Shown: positions 5,564 to 31,390, numbered from the stretch's first letter. The stretch is 32,000 nt of DNA from Candidatus Saccharimonadota bacterium (GCA_965227835.1 OZ245768.1:780001-812000); one strand, 5' to 3'. Notes: generated from the sequence alone by a model not told the origin. A program made the numbers and translations.

Positions 5564-5583
5564 AAATTTAGTTTTTTAAAGTT

Positions 5584-5610
5584 AAAGCCCGTGCATTCTG
5601 CACGGGCTTT
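5584..5610. terminator. Bidirectional intrinsic terminator hairpin (aaagcccgtgca-ttc-tgcacgggcttt)
   Basis: A perfect GC-rich stem flanked by A-runs and T-runs. It lies between the convergent rplT (+) and secreted paralog 1 (-). It recurs almost identically at 6263-6290. Confidence 0.8.
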
Positions 5611-5617
5611 TGGTAGT

Positions 5618-6109
5618 TTAGGGGAATAACTGAAAAACGAAGTTTTTATAGGCTATTTCCCTTTCTGGAGAAGGTTGGTTGCTATAAATGAATTGATATT
5701 GTAAAAATGAAGGCATACTCTTATGGTTGCTTCTAGTAATTTCAAACAAATTACCAGAACTTGTTTCAGGAAGTGTAAAGGTTTTTTCAGGGAAATTTTG
5801 ATGATTTATTATTATATCCATTGAAAAAAAATTTACTTCACAACTATTAATAATATATCCTTTATAAACAAAACCACCATCCAAAGTTTCTTCGTATTCA
5901 AATATAATACAGTTAACTCCTGTCTCTATGTCTACGAAATGCCATTCTTTGACAGAACAAGGATTATTAGAATTCTCTATATCAACACAAATGGTTCCTT
6001 CAGAAACATCTCTAAATGCTTCATATGAAATATTCTGCTCTGAAGCAGATAATACAAACGATAGAGACAAAGAAATGATTGAAAGAACAACAGATGTAAA
6101 AATTTTCAT
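5618..6109 (-). CDS. Secreted four-cysteine protein, paralog 1 of a three-member family (function unknown)
   Basis: Intact 163-aa ORF with no TGA. It has the signal peptide MKIFTSVVLSIISLSLSFVLSAS/EQ, an AGGAG Shine-Dalgarno site 7 nt upstream, and the conserved motifs F.DIETG.NC and LFEI.RSN shared with 6236-6808 and 8400-8915. Confidence 0.8.
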   Translation of the reverse strand: MKIFTSVVLSIISLSLSFVLSASEQNISYEAFRDVSEGTICVDIENSNNPCSVKEWHFVDIETGVNCIIFEYEETLDGGFVYKGYIINSCEVNFFSMDIIINHQNFPEKTFTLPETSSGNLFEITRSNHKSMPSFLQYQFIYSNQPSPEREIAYKNFVFQLFP

Positions 6110-6145
6110 TTTAAACTCCTTTTTTGGAAAAAATTTTTTACCATA

Positions 6146-6216
6146 CTCTTCAGATATCTGAAAAGTATAAGGATTATAATAATATAAATTTAAAAGTCAA
6201 ATAAAAATTTTGACTT
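6146..6216 (-). promoter_or_regulatory. Promoter, operator and 5'-UTR hairpin module of paralog 1
   Basis: On the minus strand, TTGACT (6195-6200) and TATAAT (6173-6178) are separated by a 16-nt spacer. The -35 lies inside the inverted repeat AAGTCAAA-N7-TTTGACTT (6194-6216). The 5'-UTR palindrome ctcttcagatatctgaaaag is at 6146-6165. The module is near-identical at 6845-6915. Confidence 0.65.
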
Positions 6217-6235
6217 ATTTCAAATTTTGACTTTT

Positions 6236-6808
6236 TTATAAATTACAACTCTTTTTAAAATCAAAGCCCGTGCATTTTGCACGGGCTTTTAGAAAATTTA
6301 ATCAAATTTGTTCATAGAGGTTATTTTCTTCTACATCAAAAAGAATTTTTTCATAATCATCAAGTTCACTTGGAGAGGATTCATTGTAATAAAAAAATTC
6401 ATATAAAAGTATAGAATTTAAACCTCTAAAGTTAGATCTTTTAATTTCAAATAAACTATCAGAGCCTAATTCAGGAATTTTAAAAGTCTTTTTAGTCAAT
6501 TTTTGAGTAACAAGTTCATCTTTTTTTGTAATAGGTTTTTCACAACCATAAACATAATAATTATGAGTAAATATGTAATTTGATACAGTATCAATATTAA
6601 CTATTTTACAATTAAATCCTGTCTCTATATCTAAAAAAAGATATTTTTTACTATGGCATGAGGAAAGGTTTTTATCAAGAGAACAAATAATACTTTTTCC
6701 AGGAATTTCCCTAAATGCTTCATCTGAAATATTCTGCTCTGAAGCAGATAATCCAAAAGATAAAAACAAGGAAATGACCGAAAGAACAACAGATGTAAAA
6801 ATTTTCAT
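6236..6808 (-). CDS. Secreted four-cysteine protein, paralog 2. The position homologous to the stop is TGA, so under code 25 the ORF runs on to TAA 6236-6238.
   Basis: MKIFTSVVLSVISLFLSFGLSAS/EQNISDEAFREI... The first ~35 codons and ~110 nt upstream are near-identical to paralog 1 at the DNA level. The standard-code ORF is 6302-6808. The codon at 6302-6304 is TGA, after which 21 more sense codons cross the terminator hairpin. Confidence 0.7.
6263..6290. terminator. Intrinsic terminator hairpin, a copy of the 5584-5610 element
   Basis: aaagcccgtgcattttgcacgggctttt differs by 1 nt from the 5584 copy. It lies just downstream of the standard-code end of paralog 2. Confidence 0.75.
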
Positions 6809-6844
6809 TTTAAACTCCTTATTTTGAAAAAATTTTTTACCATA

Positions 6845-6915
6845 CTCTTCAGATATCTGAAAAGTATAAGGATTATAATAATATAAATTTAAAAGTCAAA
6901 TAAAAATTTTGACTT
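6845..6915 (-). promoter_or_regulatory. Promoter, operator and 5'-UTR hairpin module of paralog 2
   Basis: -35 at 6894-6899, -10 at 6872-6877, inverted repeat at 6893-6915, UTR palindrome at 6845-6864. This duplicates 6146-6216. Confidence 0.65.
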
Positions 6916-7101
6916 CTCTTAAATTTATAAAAAAATTGATTTTTATATATAAAAAATAGTTTAGGAGATAAAAAACTTTCGATAAATTTTAAATGAATAG
7001 AAGCCAAAAGTATAGAACATTTTAATAATTGTATCAATGAAATACTATACAAATGAAATATAGATGAAAATATACTGGAGTCTATAAGAAGATTTTCATA
7101 T

Positions 7102-8334
7102 ATGATTATATATCTTGTTGAAAAAAATCCGAAAGAATGGAAATCTAAAATTTCAGAAGATTTAAGGCATGACATTGTAAATATAACCTGAATTTTTAAT
7201 CAAGTCTACTATGGGTCTGCTATGAATAAAAAGAATTGAGAAATAACTGAAGAAGATAAAGAAAGAGTGGTTAATCTAGTTAGGGCATTAAAAGCTAGTA
7301 TAAATAATATATACATACTAAACTATTATATTGAAATATCCCAATGATACATTTCAGTTGGAACATATGAAAATAATTTAGTAAATTTATTTCATCCTTT
7401 AAAAGAAGGAGTTAATGAAAGTTGTGAAGTAGAAATAGAATCAAAATGAGATTTCCCTATTATAAGTAATTTTCCTTTTTCATATATTTATAATTTATTA
7501 AATAATATGATTAAAAATGCCTATAAGCATGGAGAAGCTAAAAAAGTAAAAATTATTTTTCATGTTTCTGAAAAAGAAACAAAAATAGAAATATCTGATA
7601 ATTGAAAATGAATAGATGAAAAAATTGTATGAGACATTTTTAAAAAATGATTTTCTGGAGGTTGAAGCACATGATTATGATTATCTTCTACCAGAGAAAT
7701 ATTAGATTTAATATGATGAAAAGTTGAAGTAGAAGCCAACTGATGAATAAACTGAATACTTCCCTACATACCAGAAATATCAAAAGATATATTAGAAATT
7801 AAGTCAGAAAAATATAAAAATTTAAACTGAAAAATATTAACAAAGAATAATAAAGAGGTTAATAGTTTAATTATAAAATCAATGGTAGAAAAAATATCTT
7901 GTGATCAGGAATACAAGAATGTTATTATCAATTTTTTTAATGATATTTTAGAAATTTGAACTTTAAATAATGTAATATTTTGTTTATATAGTATAATATT
8001 ATATATGATTGAAAAAAATGATAGAACAGAAAATAATGAAATTATTAGAGAAATTATTGAATATATTTTAGAGAACAGGTGAAAATACAATAAGATTAGA
8101 GAAAAATTATATTATATTATGCAAAAGTTAAACATTGATACTGATTTTGAACAATTTTATGAAGGTGATTATTTATATGACTTAATAATTAATAAACTTC
8201 AGAAAAAATATAATATAAATCTCCCATTTTCAATTCAAAAAATTACTAAAATTATAAATCAAGAGAGAAAAGAAAAAAAATGTAAGTGAGTAAAATTTAC
8301 TATCTTTATACCAAATAAATCTATATTTCATTAG
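7102..8334 (+). CDS. Soluble histidine-kinase-like protein (H-box + HATPase_c) with a C-terminal extension of about 190 aa. The N-terminus is uncertain.
   Basis: H-box-like SEDLRHDIVNITGIF; N-box NLLNNMIKNAYKHGEA; G1 ISDNG(TGA)KG(TGA)ID; G2 GFSGGGSTGLGLSSTREI, with many TGA=Gly codons. TAG at 8332-8334. The frame is open from 6931 and the upstream part looks coding, but there is no ATG, GTG or TTG before ATG 7102. No transmembrane segment is visible. Confidence 0.7.
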
Positions 8335-8363
8335 ATAATTTTTCTTGGGATTTTCATTAAAAT

Positions 8364-8395
8364 AAAGCCTACAAATCTTACGATTTGTAGGCTTT
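8364..8395. terminator. Bidirectional intrinsic terminator (aaagcctacaaatc-ttac-gatttgtaggcttt)
   Basis: A perfect 14-bp stem between the convergent HK-like gene (+) and paralog 3 (-). Confidence 0.8.
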
Positions 8396-8399
8396 CTGG

Positions 8400-8915
8400 T
8401 TATTCTATATAATAAGTAAAAAATTTATTATAAGTATCTTGTTTTAAAAATACTCCTCCATAATAAAAAATTTGATACCGAATAACCATAGGTTCAGTAG
8501 GTATTCTTATTATTCCAAACCAATTATAATGGTTTCCTTCATGAAGAACAAACTCTTTTCCAGTTAAATCAGATGAAGATTCTATTGTAGGTAAATTTTG
8601 AAAATCTTGTCCACATTCTTTAATTTCATATTCATGAAGAGAATAATTTGTAATATCTACAGTCAAAGTTCTGTTATTTATAATACAGAAAAAACCAGTA
8701 TCAATATCATAAAACTTATAAATAGTATCTGTCAGTGTCTGACCACAGGGAACTTCTATTTTAAGATCCCCTATATTATCTTGAAAAGGACAAGCATATA
8801 TAATTTTACTTATTTCACTAAATTCCTTTGCAGTAGTGCTACTTACTTCAGTAAACATTTCTGCATATGAGCCAAAAGAATATAAAAGTAAAACAATAGA
8901 AACAAGAATTTTCAT
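8400..8915 (-). CDS. Secreted four-cysteine protein, paralog 3
   Basis: Intact 171-aa ORF with no TGA. Signal peptide MKILVSIVLLLYSFGSYA/EM. It shares the four Cys positions and the motifs YDIDTGFFCII and IRYQIFYYG with paralogs 1 and 2. Confidence 0.8.
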   Translation of the reverse strand: MKILVSIVLLLYSFGSYAEMFTEVSSTTAKEFSEISKIIYACPFQDNIGDLKIEVPCGQTLTDTIYKFYDIDTGFFCIINNRTLTVDITNYSLHEYEIKECGQDFQNLPTIESSSDLTGKEFVLHEGNHYNWFGIIRIPTEPMVIRYQIFYYGGVFLKQDTYNKFFTYYIE

Positions 8916-8951
8916 TTTAAACTCCTTTTTTGAGAAAAATTTTTTATCACA

Positions 8952-9026
8952 CTTTTCAGATTGTAATCTGAAAAGTATAGTATTTATAATAATATAGAAC
9001 TGAAAGTCAAATTTAAATTTGACTTT
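8952..9026 (-). promoter_or_regulatory. Promoter, operator and 5'-UTR hairpin module of paralog 3
   Basis: Perfect 24-bp palindrome AAAGTCAAATTTAAATTTGACTTT (9003-9026) containing the -35 (9005-9010). The -10 is TATAAA (8983-8988). The UTR hairpin is cttttcagat-tgta-atctgaaaag (8952-8975). Confidence 0.65.
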
Positions 9027-9060: not shown

Positions 9061-10253
9061 TACCTGAATTAAACCCCGAAGTGCAATTTTTTAAATGAAC
9101 TTAAAGAAGAAAATATAGCATTAAGAAATTTTTTATTTTTGAGATTATAAAAAATTTTGTTATAATTCCAAATACAACATTAAGATTGTGAAAAGTGTGC
9201 TTGATTAGGGGAAATAAATCAAAGTATTTCTCTAGGAGTATTTGCTAATATATCGCAAATACTTTTTATTTTTTCATCACTTACATAATCAAATATAGTT
9301 CATTTAGGAAAAAATCTCCTGATAATCCTATTTAAATTCTCAATACTTCACTTCTGCCAAGAAGAATAAGGCTCACAAAAGTAAGTATCTATTCATATAT
9401 CATTTAATAAATAATGCTTAGCAAATTCCATTCAATTATCAAAAGTAACAGATTTAATTCATATATCATCTTTAACTCAAGCTATTAGATTAATTATATT
9501 TTCACTTGATTTATCTTTTATTTTAAAAATTTTAGGTAACCTAGTCTTTCTATCAACCAATGTAAGTATAGCTCATTTAAATCATTTTTTAGAAACAATT
9601 AAATCAGCTTCAATATGTCATTTTTCTTCTCTGTTATTTATTGTTTCAGGTCTATTTTTAATACTAACTCTATTTTTAATTTTCACTCTTTCTGTTTGTT
9701 GTTTTTTCTTTCTATAACCTTTATGTTTATATAATAATAGTTCTTTATATTTATTTCACATACCAGTTTCTAGCCAAGAATATATACTTGTATGGGAGAT
9801 ATGTTTCTTTTTATCTGTTTGAGTATTATTCCGTTTCTTAGCAATTGTTTTTGGGGACATTTGTATTTCTGTTATTGATAGTTGTTCTATTATGAAATTT
9901 TTCATATTAGTATTCATATTTATCTTCATTGATTGAGTTTTTGTTAACCATCGTCTTTGATATGATTTGATTTCTGCTTCTAGTGCTAAATATACTTTTT
10001 TATTGTTTCATCGTTTTTTTACTGAATTTCTGTATATCTCTCTGCTTATTGTTGATTCTGATCTTTTTAGTATTGATGCTATATCTTTTTTCTTTAATCA
10101 TTTATTTAAATGAAATTCAATACTTTCTCTCTCTTGGAATATTAATTGTCAGTACATATCTTATTATATTAGAAAATAATGTTATTACCCTACGGGGAAT
10201 ACTATATTTTCTTCTCTTTTAATTGCACTTCATTTCTTACTTTGGGTTAGGTA
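9061..10253 (-). mobile_element. IS30-family insertion sequence (about 1.19 kb) with imperfect terminal inverted repeats
   Basis: The left end tacctgaattaaaccccgaagtgcaatt (9061-9088) matches the reverse complement of the right end aattgcacttcatttcttactttgggttaggta (10221-10253). They share TACCT, AACCC and an exact GAAGTGCAATT core. The element encloses a DDE transposase gene. Confidence 0.75.
9180..10157 (-). CDS. IS30-family DDE transposase
   Basis: MYG(TGA)QLIFQERESIEFHLNKG(TGA)LKKKDIASILKRSESTISREIYRN...GHIEADLIV...LTLVDRKTRL...TFDNGMEFAKH...CEPYSSWQKGSIENLNRIIRRFFPKGT...ANTPREILGF. 325 aa, with about a dozen in-frame TGA. TAA at 9180-9182. Confidence 0.9.
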
Positions 10254-10264
10254 AATTATTTTTT

Positions 10265-11575
10265 ATGGAAAAATATAAATTAAGCATTGCATGAGGTTGA
10301 TCTGTTAAGAATTCTTCAATAACTCAAGCAAGAAAATCATTGGAGGAAAGTATAAGATCTGTAGACAAAACTACTCCCAGTATAGAAGAGTTGAGACAAG
10401 AACCTTTTAAAAAATGGAAAAGTTTTGTAAATTCATTAAAAAGTAATTGATTAAATAGAAACAAGAAGAATTTTTTAATTGTAGGTACTTGATGAACATT
10501 CCAGTCAAATCAAACAGAAAATTGAATAGCTCCTGATGGATGAACTTTGAAAGATTGTATAGATGCAATAAATATACCTTTAGAGGATTGAGTGAAAAAT
10601 ATACATATTCATGACCTGATAAATCTTGATTCTTCTCAAATGGAGCTTAACCATTGGAAATTTTTAGCTGAATGTTTAGATTATTTAGAAAAAGAAGCTT
10701 CTTGATATTATGATTGAATAATAGTAACACATGGTACAGATACTATGGCATATTGAGCATCTCTTATAACATATATGCTTTCTGGTTTCCCAAAACCAAT
10801 AATATTTACTTGAAGCCAAAAACCAGCAAGAATAGAATGAAGCGATGCAGGACCTCAGATGAATAGAGCAATAAAGTGACTACAATTATTATCTGCAAAT
10901 AATTGTCCATTAACAGTAATATGTTGTTGAGTAGCCGGTATAAATTCATTCTTCTCTAAAAAAGCATGAGATCATATAGAAAATGCTTTTCAATCATATG
11001 CAGATGATTATTTAACACCACCTGTTTTGGAATGAAGTTTATCTCAAGAAATTAATCAATACTATATTAGATATAGAAAAAATCATGCTAGTATGTATAA
11101 ACCATTTTTTGATTTAAAAGAGGATTGTTTTATATCTGAAATACCAAGTTTTGAAATATGAACAAATGAACTTATAAGTATAATTAGCAATACAAGGATA
11201 GGACTTATAAAAACTCTTTGAAGTGCTACTTGTAGAGATGATATAGCAAAGATTATAGTAGAAGCTACAGAAGCTTGAGTTTTATCACCAGTAATAGTAC
11301 CTCCTTTTGCAGATGCAACAATAGAACCTGGTACTTATGAAGCATGAGCTATATTATGAAAAACAATAGAAAGGGTACAATGAAGTATACCAAGTATAAT
11401 TATGAGTCCTGATGCAATAAGAGCAAAAATGATATTTGCTGCTAATTACACAAAAATTAATGAAAAAATTTACAAAAAAGAATTATTTGAGTGATACCAA
11501 ATAAGAAATTTTTTTAACTGTATATTATCAAATATAGCATCACAACCTGAATTTCCTTTTGGAAGAGATAAGTAG
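10265..11575 (+). CDS. L-asparaginase / glutaminase family protein (type I-like) with an N-terminal extension of about 70 aa
   Basis: FLIVGTGGTF carries the two Gly of TGGT as TGA TGA. Also present are IIVTHGTDTMAYGAS and FTGSQKP. 436 aa; TAG at 11573-11575. The ATG is only 12 nt from the right end of the IS30 element. Confidence 0.75.
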
Positions 11576-20788: not shown

Positions 20789-21994
20789 GGGACCTCTGCA
20801 ATATTGTTGAAAAGAACAAGAAAAAAGTGATTTTGAATAAAAATCACTTTTTTTGAAGAATATATAAGATAATTTCTATGAATTATGCCTTTTTTTAGGT
20901 ATAATTTCCAAATTTAGGCACAATTCACCTATTAGAAAGCTATATATACCTCCTTGCCAATAGTTCAAAATTATAAATAGCACAAGATAAAAACCAGTGC
21001 ATAGCATTCTTAACTAATCATCTATATCTTGTTTTATAATTTCAATATTTAGCCTTTAAAATAGAAAAAGGATGTTCTACTCTTGCCCTAATAGTAGATT
21101 TAATTCTATTTTGTTCTTTTTGATAAGAAGTCAACGGATTATTTCTAGATCATCTTTCATTGAACTCTCACTTAATTCATAACTCATCTAAAAATTTTAT
21201 TTTATCTTTACTTATATAGGCACTATCTCAATATGCCTCTTCACTCTCATCTCAAGTAATTAAAGTATCAGATAATTGTGAATCATGTATCTTAGCTGTC
21301 GTATATGTTGTATTCATTACAAAGTCTCCTCTCTTTGTTGTTTCAATATGAGCTTTATATCAATGATAACTTCTTCAATTCTTCTTTGTAAAACTAGCTT
21401 CCTTATCTCTTGTATTTTCTCATTTATTATTCTTTCTTCATTTTGGTGATTCTATTATAGTACCATCTTGAATAAATCACTTTTCTACTGTAAATCACAT
21501 TTCAGCTAAAATAAATTGAGTCATTGTAAATATAGTTTCCTGACTTCAGTTTTCTGATAATTCATTTCTAAATCTACATATTGTTGTTTCATCTGGTATA
21601 TCTTTAGATTCAGATATTCATAGAAACTTTTGAAAGCTATTTCTGTCTCTTATTTGATCTTCTATTTCCGGATCTGATAATCCATATAGTCATTGAAGAA
21701 ATAGTATTTTTAACATTTTTTGTATTTCCATTCTTGGTCTTCAAACTCATCAATCTGATATTTCTCTAGATAAATTAATTTTATTTGATATTGATTCCCA
21801 TGGGACTACTTTATCTAATTTTGTTAGAAACTTTTCTGTTCTTGTAATTCATAACTCATTTTGGAAATAATTCAAAAATGTTTGTTGTTCTTTAAATGGT
21901 GACATAATCATTAAAAAAAAATTAAAATATTTATCATATTTTAATCTTTTTATTATATTTTTGTAATTTAAATCTATCTTTTTGCAGAGGTCCC
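20789..21994 (-). mobile_element. IS5-family insertion sequence (1206 bp) with 13-bp perfect inverted repeats and a 4-bp TAGA target duplication
   Basis: GGGACCTCTGCAA at 20789-20801 matches the reverse complement of ttgcagaggtccc at 21982-21994. It is flanked by TAGA at 20785-20788 and 21995-21998. Confidence 0.85.
20940..21905 (-). CDS. IS5-family DDE transposase
   Basis: MSPFKEQQTFLNYF...GGVGRPRMEIQKMLKILFLQGLYGLSDPEIEDQIRDRNSFQKFLG...PDETTICRFRNEL...IQDGTIIESP...YHGYKAHI...TTAKIHDS...YGDSAYIS...RARVEHPFSILKAKYG.YKTRYRGLVKN. 321 aa, many TGA=Gly. Confidence 0.9.
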
Positions 21995-25435: not shown

Positions 25436-25495
25436 AAGTCTTTATATTTAATTTGATTCTGGACATATTATAAAAACAAAAAAATAAAAAATTAC

Positions 25496-25523
25496 TTGAC
25501 AAATTTTAAAATAAAGTTATAAT
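25496..25523 (+). promoter_or_regulatory. Consensus sigma70-type promoter (TTGACA-N16-TATAAT) for small membrane cassette 1
   Basis: TTGACA at 25496-25501 and TATAAT at 25518-25523, followed by the GGAGG Shine-Dalgarno site and ATG 25586. Confidence 0.6.
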
Positions 25524-25585
25524 GTTCCACGTAACTTTTAAAGTTATCAAATTTAGTTCTTTTAAATTTAAAATGGAGGAAAATT

Positions 25586-25981
25586 ATGGATACTCTTATA
25601 ATTCTATTTCTTATTGCTTGCTTGATTGTACCTATTATTATATATGAAATTGTGAACCATTTTCAAAAAGGAGGAAAAGAGAAAGAAAATATAGTAGAAG
25701 AAAAAAAAGATATAACAAATGAGGTAATGGGGGAAGACTCTAACAGTAGTTTTCATCCTAGCATCTTAATTCCAATAGGTTTTGTATTAGTTCTGGTTGC
25801 ACTTATGATTGGAGCTACACAAGGTCCTACTGCGTCTGAAAAAGGAAAAATAGTGGTATATTTCATATTAGGATATTTTGGTTTTGCTATTGGTGCTGCT
25901 GTTATATTAACAACCATATTTTTTTTTATTGAAAAAATAACAAAAAAAAGGGGGAAAGAAAAGCAAGCTCAAACATGCTAG
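25586..25981 (+). CDS. Small three-TM membrane protein (131 aa) ending ...KQAQTC; cassette 1
   Basis: Intact ORF with no TGA (11 Gly, all GGN) and a strong GGAGG Shine-Dalgarno site. It shares about 40 nt of 5' flank and about 80 nt of 3' end and terminator with the cassette at 26241. Confidence 0.7.
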   Translation: MDTLIILFLIACLIVPIIIYEIVNHFQKGGKEKENIVEEKKDITNEVMGEDSNSSFHPSILIPIGFVLVLVALMIGATQGPTASEKGKIVVYFILGYFGFAIGAAVILTTIFFFIEKITKKRGKEKQAQTC

Positions 25982-26011
25982 AAAAAACTCTAGTCATATA
26001 GAGCTTCAATC

Positions 26012-26045
26012 AAAGAAGGACTTCCTGCAAAGGAAGTCCTTTTTC
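26012..26045. terminator. Intrinsic terminator (aaggacttcct-gcaa-aggaagtcctt + T-run); a copy recurs at 27192-27225
   Basis: An 11-bp stem followed by ttttctttt. Confidence 0.75.
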
Positions 26046-26240
26046 TTTTCTAAATTTATTTATTGAGTATCTACACCATATGCACAATATGTTATGAACT
26101 CACACATAACGGTATTTTTTGACTTTGTTCATAAATCATTATAATCCTGATTACAATCTTATTTAACTTAATTTAAAGTAAATATGAATATAAATATATC
26201 ATAAATTTAGTTCTTTATAAATTTAAAACAGGAGGAAATT

Positions 26241-26543
26241 ATGAAAGACAAAACATTTCGGAAAAAAGTTTGTAGGTATTTAGAATGTATTTTTAAAACT
26301 CAGACAGTAGGTGTAATGCCTGGTTTAGTAACAGTTTTACATATCTGTTACCTATACTTTGAAGGTCTAGATTTGTCTCTAGGAAGTAAGATGTTTGTTG
26401 GTTGTTTACTAACTATGTTTTGTGTTTGGATTACATATATTGTTCTAAATTGGATTTTAGAAGATATAAAAAAGTTAGTAAAAGAAGACGAAAAAAGGGA
26501 AGAACAGAATCTCTATCAAGAGATAAAAGCTCAAACATGCTAG
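26241..26543 (+). CDS. Small two-TM membrane protein (100 aa) ending ...IKAQTC; cassette 2
   Basis: Intact ORF with no TGA and a GGAGG Shine-Dalgarno site. The last codons and the following 30 nt (gctcaaacatgctagaaaaaactctagtcatatagagcttca) are identical to cassette 1. Confidence 0.7.
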   Translation: MKDKTFRKKVCRYLECIFKTQTVGVMPGLVTVLHICYLYFEGLDLSLGSKMFVGCLLTMFCVWITYIVLNWILEDIKKLVKEDEKREEQNLYQEIKAQTC

Positions 26544-26570
26544 AAAAAACTCTAGTCATATAGAGCTTCA

Positions 26571-27188
26571 GTAAATATCTACCAGTAGAACTGGTAGCTT
26601 TAAATGGAAGCCCCTAGAAGGGGCTAAAATAGTTTTTACCAGTTTAAATCTAACTGATTTCCATCAATGGTTTTATCCTTATGTTGCTGATGTTGAACAT
26701 AATTTTTTATCATATCCAAGTCAAGTCAAACTGTACTTACATAGTATCATCTACTCCAGAAATTCTTCGAGTACAGTCATTTCTTCTTACTATGTTTGTT
26801 ATGAAGTATTATTGCACTCTTTCATTTCAATCTTCACAGAATTTCTGCAACAGAGTATTTTGGAGATATCCTCAAAACGAGATGAACATGATCTATCGTT
26901 ATATTTCATTTTAATATCTCAAAATCATATCTCTTTGCAAGTTCATGAAATGTGTCTCGTATATCTTTTCTAACTGATTGAAAAAGTATTTTTTTTCGGT
27001 ACTTTGGTACCACCACTATGTGGTAAGTGCAGTCCCAATTCACATGGGACTGCTTTGCGTATTTGTGGGACATATCTTTAAAAAGTTATTCCCCTCCTAG
27101 GTGCTTCCTAGAAGATTATACACAACTACCGGAACGGTAAAACCTCCACTACTCGCACCAGCAGAGCTGGTGGTTTAGTGTTGGATTA
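26571..27188 (-). mobile_element. IS200/IS605-family (IS200-type, tnpA only) insertion sequence, about 618 bp
   Basis: The boundaries come from comparison with the uninterrupted paralogous site at 26001-26020: ...gagcttca|atcaaagaagg versus ...gagcttca|[IS]|attaaagaagg. Subterminal hairpins are at 26581-26597, 26609-26625 and 27156-27172. No target duplication is seen, as expected for this family. Confidence 0.8.
26636..27073 (-). CDS. tnpA: IS200-family Y1 (HUH) transposase TnpA
   Basis: MSHKYAKQSHVNWDCTYHIVVVPKYRKKIL...ITIDHVHLVLRISPKYSVAEILG.LKG.SAI...KNFWSRGYYVSTVGLD, with the HUH motif HVH and the catalytic-Tyr motif RGYY. 145 aa; TGA=Gly is needed at several codons. Confidence 0.92.
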
Positions 27189-30058: not shown

Positions 30059-30086
30059 TTGACAATATTAATTTAATTAATATAAT
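30059..30086 (+). promoter_or_regulatory. Consensus sigma70-type promoter (TTGACA-N16-TATAAT) for the glycine-zipper gene
   Basis: TTGACA at 30059-30064 and TATAAT at 30081-30086. A small hairpin (cacata..tatgtg) and an AAGGAG Shine-Dalgarno site precede ATG 30141. Confidence 0.6.
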
Positions 30087-30140
30087 ACATATAGTGCACA
30101 TAAGTTTATGTGTATTTAGTCTACCAAAAAGGAGTAAATT

Positions 30141-30506
30141 ATGACTATATGTAAAAAAAGCCTAGCTATATCTGTCTTAGTAGCTATTCTATGCCATTTT
30201 CTATTCGCTTTACCTATAAGTTCCGAAGCACCAAAATTCTTCATATTTGTACATGATAATATTACAATACCTCTTTGGGTGTGTATAATTGGATGTGGAA
30301 TATTATTTGGGATTCCAGAAAAAAAATCTTCCTCAGATAATTTTAAATTGCTTCTGGGATTTATTCTTGGAGGAACCCTTGGATTTATTCTTGGAGGAAC
30401 CCTTGGATTTATTCTTGGAGGACCCCTTGGATTTATTCTTGGAGGAACCCTTGGATTTGTTCTTGGATTTATTCTTGGATGGTCTCTAGGAGAAAAATTT
30501 AATTAA
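30141..30506 (+). CDS. Small membrane protein (121 aa) with a signal/TM N-terminus and a tandem GFILGGTL glycine-zipper repeat
   Basis: MTICKKSLAISVLVAILCHFLFALPISSEA..., then (GFILGG[T/P]L)x4 followed by GFVL-GFIL-GWSL. It has 19 Gly codons and none is TGA. TAA at 30504-30506. Confidence 0.75.
   Translation: MTICKKSLAISVLVAILCHFLFALPISSEAPKFFIFVHDNITIPLWVCIIGCGILFGIPEKKSSSDNFKLLLGFILGGTLGFILGGTLGFILGGPLGFILGGTLGFVLGFILGWSLGEKFN
30357..30479 (+). repeat. 24-bp tandem repeat (ggatttattcttggaggaaccctt), 4 full copies plus degenerate 12-bp half units
   Basis: Units are at 30357, 30381, 30405 and 30429. They are in frame and encode the glycine zipper. The track ORF 30289-30489 is the out-of-frame reading of the same repeat. 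Confidence 0.9.
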
Positions 30507-30580
30507 GCAATAAGCTAACATTTAAAAATCCATAGGAATTATGATTAAATATTTTTTAACTTAGGTTTCAAAAGCTAGGC

Positions 30581-30614
30581 AAAGGACACAGTTGATAAAT
30601 CAACTGTGTCCTTT
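30581..30614 (+). terminator. Intrinsic terminator (aaaggacacagttga-taaa-tcaactgtgtccttt)
   Basis: A 15-bp perfect stem downstream of the glycine-zipper gene. Confidence 0.8.
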
Positions 30615-30714
30615 ATATTAAAATCTAAAAAAGACTTTTTTTCTTCAAAATATTAATTTTTCAATCCTTTATTAAATATAAAAAACACAAAAACTTTTTG
30701 AAAAAAACTTTTTT

Positions 30715-30970: not shown

Positions 30971-31390
30971 ATGAATTATGTAAATGAACTTAAAAATTGG
31001 TTTGAAGAAAAAATAAAGATAAATGAAAAATATATAAACTTTGAGTATAGGTATAAAAAGTGAGATATATGGTATGCAAATTTATGAATAAATATATGAA
31101 ATGAATTTAATAAAGTTAGGCCTGTATTGGTATTAACAAATAATAAATTTTCAAGATGAAATAACATTATAATAATACCAATTACAAGTTTAAAATCTGA
31201 AAAAAGAATACTAAACACAGATATAATAATTGATACAAAATTTGGTAAAAGACAAAGATCAATTATGAGAATTAACCATTTGAAAGATATTTCTAAAAAA
31301 AGACTTATAAAGAAAGTATGAAGAATAGATGATGATACTCTAAATAGACTGGGTATAAAATTAAAGCTATTGTTTGATATTAGAGAATAA
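30971..31390 (+). CDS. PemK/MazF-family endoribonuclease toxin-like protein (139 aa); no adjacent antitoxin gene recognised
   Basis: ...YKKG(TGA)DIWYANLG(TGA)INIG(TGA)NEFNKVRPVLVLTNNKF...IIIIPITSLKSEKR...RQRSIMRINHLKDISKKRLIKKVG. This is the G-D-I-W...G.E....RPvlVl...v.PiTS pattern of the family. TAA at 31388-31390. Confidence 0.75.

Follow-up and report, generated by a model that had tools for sequence, protein, structure and literature searches.

Three tandem gene cassettes with shared flanks and divergent bodies encode a strain-variable family of predicted exported proteins in a bacterium that reads TGA as glycine

How do three neighbouring genes come to share almost the same promoter, leader and terminator while their mature proteins have diverged strongly? 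The question is raised by positions 5584-9026 of a 32,000-nucleotide stretch of DNA from a Candidatus Saccharimonadota bacterium assembly (GCA_965227835.1, OZ245768.1:780001-812000; the whole stretch is called the window, and all positions are counted from its first letter). Three minus-strand paralogues lie there and were named cas1, cas2 and cas3. The evidence favours, without making secure, the explanation that the three, each transcribed on its own, make up a tandem family which varies between strains and which encodes, in a bacterium with genetic code 25, small beta-rich proteins that contain cysteines and are exported by Sec, and that the bodies of these genes are swapped by homologous recombination. 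The coding sequences are as follows.

5618 to 6109, minus strand: cas1, 163 amino acids, stop codon TAA, free of TGA; signal peptide at about codons 1-23; cysteines at 41, 51, 67 and 90.
6236 to 6808, minus strand: cas2, 190 amino acids in code 25; the homologous body runs up to the TGA at 6302-6304, the only TGA of the gene.
8400 to 8915, minus strand: cas3, 171 amino acids, stop codon TAA, free of TGA; cysteines at 42, 57, 77 and 101.

The length of cas2 depends on the genetic code. The source contig measures 1,489,121 bp. The window, with a GC content of about 25%, holds 24 open reading frames (ORFs) of at least 100 amino acids with the standard bacterial code, versus 67 with TGA as a sense codon. 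In-frame TGA codons stand at conserved glycines of SecA (in the Walker A sequence MKTGEGKT, in NMAGRGTDI and in RGRAGRQGDPG), GyrA (DGQGNFGS) and MurG (GGSTGGH). Because TGA falls on universally conserved glycines of these three proteins, the organism is, as judged from its sequence, a user of genetic code 25 (TGA = glycine), of the Gracilibacteria/Absconditabacteria type. To our knowledge, code 25 occurs in Gracilibacteria and Absconditabacteria only. An earlier sequence-only reading of this DNA had guessed at a candidate phyla radiation (CPR) lineage, and the code fits that guess; the recoded TGA, and hence the true length of cas2, had been missed. Rfam scan of the window gave one tRNA as the sole match, and no rRNA was found in the window.

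The same reading had described three minus-strand genes of about 165 amino acids. ORFs of 163, 168 and 171 amino acids are indeed present, but the second figure holds for cas2 only under the standard code, where the gene spans 6302-6808. Under code 25 the TGA at 6302-6304 is read as glycine and 22 more codons follow, through the terminator hairpin, to a TAA at 6236; this C-terminal extension contributes two further cysteines. Since the genome uses code 25, the cas2 product should have 190 amino acids, which is also the length of its public protein record. The possibility that the three genes are ORF artefacts of standard-code reading was ruled out by their paralogy, their conserved cysteines and their conservation in a second strain.

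Each gene was found to be a self-contained cassette running from a sigma-70-type promoter to a hairpin terminator, as had in essence been claimed earlier, and all elements are present in all three.

5584 to 5610, minus strand: cas1 terminator hairpin and candidate 3' homology arm, AAAGCCCGTGCA-GAA-TGCACGGGCTTT plus a T-rich tail; -20.7 kcal/mol, z -7.0.
6116 to 6121, minus strand: cas1 Shine-Dalgarno (SD) sequence AAGGAG, 6 nt 5' of the ATG.
6143 to 6168, minus strand: cas1 hairpin of the 5' untranslated region (UTR), AUACUUUUCAGAU/AUCUGAAGAGUAU; the 62-nt UTR has -14.8 kcal/mol, z -3.4.
6173 to 6200, minus strand: cas1 promoter TTGACT-16-TATAAT, 11 of 12 positions matching.
6194 to 6216, no strand assigned: cas1 upstream palindrome AAGTCAAA-N7-TTTGACTT, overlapping the -35 element; an extra direct half-site lies at 6222-6238.
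6263 to 6289, minus strand: cas2 terminator hairpin, -20.8 kcal/mol, z -6.0, within the code-25 frame of cas2.
6815 to 6820, minus strand: cas2 SD sequence AAGGAG.
6842 to 6867, minus strand: cas2 5' UTR hairpin.
6872 to 6899, minus strand: cas2 promoter TTGACT-16-TATAAT, 11 of 12 positions matching.
6893 to 6915, no strand assigned: cas2 upstream palindrome.
8364 to 8395, no strand assigned: cas3 terminator with a 14-bp stem, bidirectional with a neighbouring kinase-like gene; -20.9 kcal/mol, z -8.1.
8922 to 8927, minus strand: cas3 SD sequence AAGGAG.
8951 to 8976, minus strand: cas3 5' UTR hairpin, stem as in cas1 and cas2, loop 4 nt longer.
8983 to 9010, minus strand: cas3 promoter TTGACT-16-TATAAA.
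9004 to 9025, no strand assigned: cas3 upstream palindrome AAAGTCAAATTT/AAATTTGACTTT.

Every motif of this module occurs exactly 3 times in the 32 kb, where 0 occurrences are expected. The 5' UTRs fold with -14.4 to -15.7 kcal/mol (z about -3.4 to -3.8) into a perfect or near-perfect hairpin of 11-13 bp situated at the 5' end predicted for the mRNA, and each cassette also contains an A6T6 tract. The UTR palindrome is probably an RNA hairpin serving as a 5' stabiliser rather than a protein operator, because its stem is kept while the loop length differs by 4 nt. The upstream palindrome, a putative operator in the earlier reading, overlaps the -35 element in all three cassettes and is found nowhere else in the window; its spacer is 7 or 6 nt, and a gene for a regulator was not found. 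The stop codon is immediately followed by the predicted terminator, and the three G+C-rich stems of 12-14 bp (-20.7 to -20.9 kcal/mol, z -6 to -8) are followed by the T-runs UUUAACUUU, UUUGAUUUU or UUUAUUUU.

Similarity among the cassettes is distributed very unevenly. Between cas1 and cas2, 113 of 118 positions are identical upstream and 77 of 84 in codons 1-28, against 228 of 399 in the rest of the coding sequence (Fisher p = 1.4e-23); that is, 94% from -118 to codon 28 and 57% in the body, with about 90% at the terminator. The segments 5990-6227 and 6689-6926 have 91% identity over 238 nt, and the terminator segments 5573-5611 and 6252-6290 have 92%, the terminator identity overall being 89-92%. 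In a sliding window of 40 nt, identity is at least 0.9 from 6228 to about 6009, 0.38-0.5 by 5990-5950 and again 0.88 at 5614-5575. The sharp boundary between conserved flank and divergent core that had been noticed earlier is thus borne out by a non-uniform profile. In cas3, the non-coding 5' module has 82% identity to those of cas1 and cas2, versus about 51% for the coding part.

Synonymous codon choice points to different ages of the parts. At identical residues of the paralogue bodies, 32 of 45 codons match, near the 28.4 expected at saturation, so the bodies appear to have diverged anciently. In codons 1-28 of cas1 and cas2, 20 of 24 match versus 10.8 expected, which argues that the 5' arm of this pair was homogenised recently. 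The proportion of synonymous differences (pS) of cas1 and cas2 is 0.19 in codons 1-28 versus 0.50 in the body. Among paralogues, the ratio of non-synonymous to synonymous differences (pN/pS) is 0.8-1.1 and dN/dS is 0.7-1.1, both measured at saturated synonymous sites and therefore uninformative on positive selection.

Could such a pattern arise with no recombination, the 5' module being merely a constrained regulatory element plus signal peptide, behind which the mature domains drift or diversify under selection? The retention of the non-coding 5' module in cas3 as well, at the identity given above, does suggest functional constraint, and the UTR stem has been kept despite its variable loop length. 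Such constraint does not explain why codons 1-28 of cas1 and cas2 are conserved at their synonymous positions too, or why these two genes have a terminator in common with its flanks included. A related strain adds two further points against it.

This strain is represented by an 8.9-kb metagenome contig from ENA, called L001, which was found through two more proteins that fall into one cluster with cas2 at 90%. From murG to an asparaginase-like gene, L001 and the window are collinear. Its slot 1, which adjoins rplT, carries a cas2-type body inside cas1-type arms: it equals cas1 at 20 of 20 informative sites 5' of 6025 (codon 29), cas2 at about 195 of 197 informative sites in the body up to the terminator loop, and cas1 again 3' of 5583, with one ambiguous exception among about 18 informative sites. 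The breakpoints of this mosaic are thus at 6025 (codon about 29) and 5583 (just past the terminator). The cas2 body has a pS of only 0.02 between the strains, while rplT, rpmI, infC, rpsT, rsmG, murG and the asparaginase-like gene have 0.09-0.30 (P = 3e-6 versus the cas2 body); its between-strain pN/pS of 0.75 comes from only about 9 changes (about 7 non-synonymous and 2 synonymous). In slot 2 of L001, the promoter and UTR are far more diverged than the body they precede. As a diverged arm stands before a near-identical body, arms and bodies have had different histories. Finally, L001 has lost cas3 between the SD sequence and codon about 158 and retains its promoter module, its UTR and its terminator (L001 1130-1340).

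The clean breakpoints of the mosaic, and a cas2 body much closer between strains than the neighbouring housekeeping genes, contradict an origin by constraint and drift, which is very improbable indeed. Recombination as the cause of the boundary between conserved flanks and divergent core is supported by these comparisons, and the earlier suggestion of recombination or gene conversion is strengthened by the finding of a cas2 body between cas1 arms with switches at codon about 29 and at the terminator. In the mechanism proposed here, the 5' module (about 200 nt, through codon about 28) and the 27-nt terminator act as homology arms, and the body between them is replaced by homologous recombination, between slots and between strains. 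Cassettes are also lost through deletion, giving presence/absence polymorphism among strains. The 5' hairpin and the SD sequence may give high and robust expression.

A few further observations were made on the cassettes in the two strains. The read-through tail of cas2 (window 6236-6304) is GLNFLKARAKCTGFDFKKSCNL, and the equivalent read-through in slot 1 of L001 gives a different tail of 38 amino acids, which overlaps the end of rplT. As the tail is not conserved between the window and L001, it is probably not functional. The cas3 deletion of L001 occurred at an AAAA(C)AAG microhomology, and the upstream palindrome of the cas3 remnant has symmetric changes (AAGGTCAAATTTAAATTTGACCTT). A T8 run at 5824-5831 (minus strand) in the coding region of cas1 (V-N-F-F-S) is the sole homopolymer of at least 8 nt in any cassette. 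Slippage might occur at this run; as L001 lacks the cas1 body, no variation in its length was observed.

What kind of protein is exchanged in this way? cas2 and cas3 have 43% and 25% protein identity to cas1. The four cysteines at conserved positions and the shared motifs F-x-D-I-[ED]-T-G-x-x-C and [LI]-x-Y-[QE]-[FI]-[IF]-Y, both noted in the sequence-only reading, were seen in all three proteins. Each N-terminus consists of MK and a 15-residue hydrophobic segment (Kyte-Doolittle 2.0-2.4) followed by S-A-S or S-Y-A, giving the candidate cleavage sites S-A-S|E in cas1 and cas2 and S-Y-A|E in cas3. Sec signal peptides for signal peptidase I (SPase I) were judged heuristically by a charged n-region, an h-region of 10-15 residues and small residues at -3 and -1; by this test, all three proteins have the cleavable signal peptide proposed before. 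No lipobox and no cysteine before residue 41 were found in cas1-3, and a Kyte-Doolittle scan showed no second hydrophobic segment. Structures were modelled with AlphaFold2 (AF2) for cas1 (pLDDT 69, pTM 0.63) and for mature cas3 (pLDDT 60). Both models are all-beta with 8-10 strands in matching order and one short helix, and the N-terminus of cas1 is helical. On these predictions, cas1-3 are small Sec-exported four-cysteine beta-rich proteins. The products may be released or displayed at the cell surface, and they may act where the cell meets a host or its competitors, a setting in which variability and presence/absence polymorphism would pay.

Relatives of the family were searched for by sequence, profile and fold. 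Scans of the cas1-3 proteins with Pfam, NCBIfam, PHROGs and PADLOC gave no match, and no Pfam family reached E <= 1. Profile search of 5.8 billion protein clusters returned only cas1-3 themselves, a cluster look-up then giving two strain variants of cas2, and HMMER, run in full over 1.84 billion representatives, yielded only two more proteins, which were repetitive and unrelated. With the two AF2 models as queries, Foldseek reached TM <= 0.33 in PDB and BFVD, without any match of E < 1e-3. Sequence-profile matches to zinc-finger entries in PDB were rejected as spurious, arising from the Y-x-C motif. At the DNA level, the UTR palindrome had four single chance matches in unrelated metagenome-assembled genomes when genome contigs were scanned, a collection which does not include the source genome. 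Neither the promoter pattern nor the protein profile had a match in metagenome contigs, and the protein profile and two DNA motifs gave, in viral contigs, only chance matches inside unrelated coding regions. tblastn of the window revealed no silent or promoterless cas copies. By all these searches, cas1-3 are a new protein family without recognisable relatives, as the statement that no known family was recognised had anticipated.

Small exported cysteine-containing proteins with polymorphic bodies behind a conserved leader, exchanged between strains, would also be expected of secreted antibacterial (bacteriocin-like) toxins whose toxic domains are polymorphic owing to toxin/immunity arms races. 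Here, however, no small immunity-like gene lies beside each cassette, PADLOC, Pfam and NCBIfam are without a match and no toxin fold was found, which makes toxins of this kind very unlikely.

The cassettes are also written in a style different from the native genes of the window, with SD present and TGA absent, a contrast that the earlier reading did not catch. Window-wide, native leaders are A/T-only and without SD, those of ribosomal-protein genes included, ATA is the main isoleucine codon (62-70%) and TGA serves for 68-72% of glycines. No SD sequence precedes rpsT, rpmI, rplT, secA, nusA, murG or gyrA, whose starts are certain from their N-termini. The cassette bodies have TGA at 0 of 22-23 glycine codons (p ~ 2e-13; p ~ 3e-7 versus the ribosomal-protein rate of 48%). 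A strong SD stands before seven window genes only, which are cas1, cas2, cas3, the three genes listed below and a PemK toxin gene; TGA-free genes have it in 6 of 6 cases versus 1 of 27 for the others (Fisher p = 6e-6). All six SD-led TGA-free genes encode small signal-peptide or membrane proteins.

25586 to 25981, plus strand: orf131, SD-led and TGA-free; small protein with two transmembrane segments; 12/12 promoter; orphan in 5.8 billion clusters.
26241 to 26543, plus strand: orf100, SD-led and TGA-free; small membrane protein; pairs with orf131.
30141 to 30506, plus strand: orf121, signal-anchor protein; 19 GGN and 0 TGA glycine codons; 12/12 promoter, AAGGAG and a strong 16-bp terminator.

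The genes orf131 and orf100 have in common about 40 nt of 5' UTR with the SD, and their 3' 44 nt are identical, including the last five codons (AQTC and stop), while their bodies are unrelated. They form a second tandem flank-sharing pair (window 25470-26640), repeating the cassette architecture. The protein of orf121 (region 30059-30615) has four to five GFILGGTL repeats and a weak, sub-threshold similarity to Bax1-I. Promoters and terminators are not specific to this class, as rpsT has an 11/12 promoter. Compared with same-strand native genes, the class prefers ATT over ATA (p = 7e-4 and 1e-3), and its four-fold-degenerate third positions equal those of same-strand native genes. Strand bias was ruled out as the cause of the ATT preference, since the effect is present within each strand, and the codon bias of highly expressed genes as a cause is weakened by ribosomal-protein genes, which lack SD and do not avoid ATA. 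Standard-code reading leaves the cas ORFs open, which is probably why they were noticed earlier; the link to SD and to a second, unrelated gene set does not depend on this ascertainment bias.

Two explanations of this class were weighed. In the first, the SD-led TGA-free genes were recently imported from an AT-rich donor that has the standard code and uses SD (such as a host bacterium or a phage or plasmid of it) and have not yet been recoded, the flanks being donor signals spread by duplication. Bodies without TGA and with GGA as the main glycine codon, as in AT-rich standard-code bacteria, would follow from such an origin, the native genes having mostly TGA and residual GGT; the sole TGA of cas2 stands where a stop is expected, ATA use is below that of native genes, SD is found in this class only (the PemK gene apart) and the bodies appear horizontally mobile between strains. 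Yet no homologue of a donor type came from the 5.8 billion clusters, the 1.84 billion representatives or the viral and metagenome scans. The four-fold third positions have the strand-specific native composition, so amelioration would be complete and TGA would nevertheless never have appeared. Between the paralogue bodies, synonymous sites are saturated, genes of native style (rplT and a kinase gene with 20 TGA codons) are interspersed with the cassettes, and members of the class lie at three separate places in the window. As an account of the cassettes, recent import is unlikely, though to be taken seriously.

In the second explanation, selection favours translation that is independent of special decoders. 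This appears more likely than recent import, because four-fold sites are fully ameliorated while TGA and ATA stay avoided. A broader proposal, that orphan envelope and secreted genes form a second translational style, kept by selection SD-led, without UGA and with few AUA, so that their translation would be independent of tRNA-Gly(UCA) and of the AUA decoder, is speculative and quite unlikely as it stands. If true, the second style might belong to a regulated programme, needed for instance while those tRNAs are scarce or under attack or while a phage interferes with decoding, or it might keep genes working in standard-code cells, by exchange with or expression in a host bacterium; the shared arms would then be docking sites for the shuffling of a portable gene pool. 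The literature yielded no paper that deals with UGA-free genes or with the use of SD in code-25 bacteria.

Several points weigh against the explanation by exchanged cassettes of exported proteins. The AF2 confidence is moderate (pLDDT 69 and 60), hence any disulfide pairing is only putative. The strain evidence comes from a single metagenome contig of about 3.4x coverage, for which a chimeric consensus is conceivable; this worry is countered by the two L001 copies differing from each other and by the junction lying within 25 nt. No homologue or fold match gives a functional lead. The lineage is poorly sampled, relatives being absent even for the kinase next to the cassettes outside its HATPase domain, and the orphan status may partly be a sampling effect. 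The statistics of codon and SD usage cover 32 kb only, with about 33 genes, and the ribosomal-protein genes neither have SD nor avoid ATA. With these points considered, the exchange of cassette bodies by homologous recombination remains the favoured explanation.

The genes around the cassettes were also inspected. One of them lies between cas2 and cas3.

7102 to 8334 (ORF open from 6931), plus strand: soluble histidine-kinase-like gene with H-box LRHDIVN, HATPase_c at residues 129-212 and 20 TGA codons, without SD.

This gene is divergent from cas2 and convergent with cas3, and a functional link to the cassettes is not established. No relatives beyond the generic HATPase domain were found, its C-terminal part of 200 amino acids having none, and no response regulator was seen in the window. 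In L001 the gene is split by a frameshift, which may denote a pseudogene or an indel error at low coverage. An IS30-family transposase gene (9180-10157; HTH_38 and rve, 14 TGA codons) situated between cas3 and the asparaginase-like gene is absent from L001, and the first 30 or so codons of the asparaginase-like gene differ between the strains (region 9062-10352). The PemK/MazF-type toxin gene at 30971-31390 has a strong SD (AGGAGG) and native-style TGA (5 of 7 glycines); upstream of it there is no obvious antitoxin ORF, and the 350 nt there are non-coding without Rfam match. Other putative mobile elements include an ORF of 145 amino acids at 26636-27073, read by eye as a putative Y1 (IS200-type) transposase, a putative DDE transposase-like ORF of 323 amino acids at 20940-21911, and, at the window start (3-509), a sequence in which a Y1/RAYT-like N-terminus is joined to a degenerate tail of GNV/TVGTF repeats.

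Gracilibacteria and Absconditabacteria live as episymbionts or predators, have hardly or never been cultured, and contact their hosts through molecules that are still to be identified. The locus supplies a concrete strain-variable family, predicted to be exported and without known relatives, and as its genes are TGA-free they should be directly expressible in E. coli for structural and binding work. It would be a clear natural case of cassette replacement through a promoter/signal-peptide arm and a terminator arm. The most unusual aspect is the hint that a recoded genome keeps a subset of its genes compatible with the standard code and dependent on SD; if genome-wide, this would bear on codon reassignment versus gene exchange, on translation initiation and possibly on interactions with hosts or phages.

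Are loci of this kind known elsewhere? Closest in architecture are the vlp genes of M. hyorhinis, the vsp genes of M. bovis and the vpma genes of M. agalactiae, which are tandem variable lipoprotein genes of mycoplasmas sharing a 5' region and signal peptide. Like cas1-3, they form a tandem array with a near-identical 5' non-coding region and signal peptide before divergent mature regions, in small AT-rich host-dependent organisms with recoded TGA. Their strain-variable repertoire is a further likeness, repertoire variation and site-specific recombination having been described for vpma (PMC2824730). The likeness would be explained if the cassettes, too, underwent mycoplasma-type phase or antigen variation, with ON/OFF switching by a hypermutable tract or a site-specific recombinase. 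Against this, cas1-3 are not lipoproteins, having no lipobox cysteine at the cleavage site and their first cysteine only at 41-42. Promoters and UTRs are without a homopolymer of at least 8 nt or a tandem repeat, the A6T6 tract varies by at most 1 base and the bodies have no internal repeats. No tyrosine recombinase is adjacent, and the one recombinase nearby, the IS30 transposase, is absent from L001. Every cas copy has a complete promoter and terminator of its own, its exchange would proceed by general homologous recombination via the arms rather than by a dedicated recombinase, and the cas genes avoid the recoded TGA. Switching of the mycoplasma type is therefore extremely improbable.

In Neisseria pilE/pilS and Borrelia vlsE, one expression site is accompanied by many silent promoterless cassettes. 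There, as proposed here, variable segments are exchanged between conserved flanks by homologous recombination, but all cas copies are complete expression units, with no silent copy in the window by tblastn. The SVM-signal effectors of phytoplasmas (Pfam PF12113), whose motif occurs in SAP11 and SAP54 (PMC8026896), likewise combine a conserved Sec signal-peptide module with small secreted proteins of high variability, in a bacterium that is reduced and depends on a host, and are effector candidates associated with mobile DNA. Unlike them, cas1-3 have no PF12113 match, the conservation extends to promoter, UTR and terminator, and the mature parts are still homologous, with the same predicted fold and four cysteines. 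In a Gracilibacterium, a hypervariable extracellular-protein gene was interpreted as subject to a pressure for diversity inside the population (Sieber et al. 2019, PMC6851277). It resembles the present locus in being a locally hypervariable extracellular-protein gene of a code-25 CPR genome, and differs in encoding one large protein with PTD 9-mer repeats, whereas the cassettes described here are discrete, repeat-free small genes with arms. On this comparison the protein family is new, while variable exported proteins that follow a conserved module for expression and leader are, as a general kind, already known.

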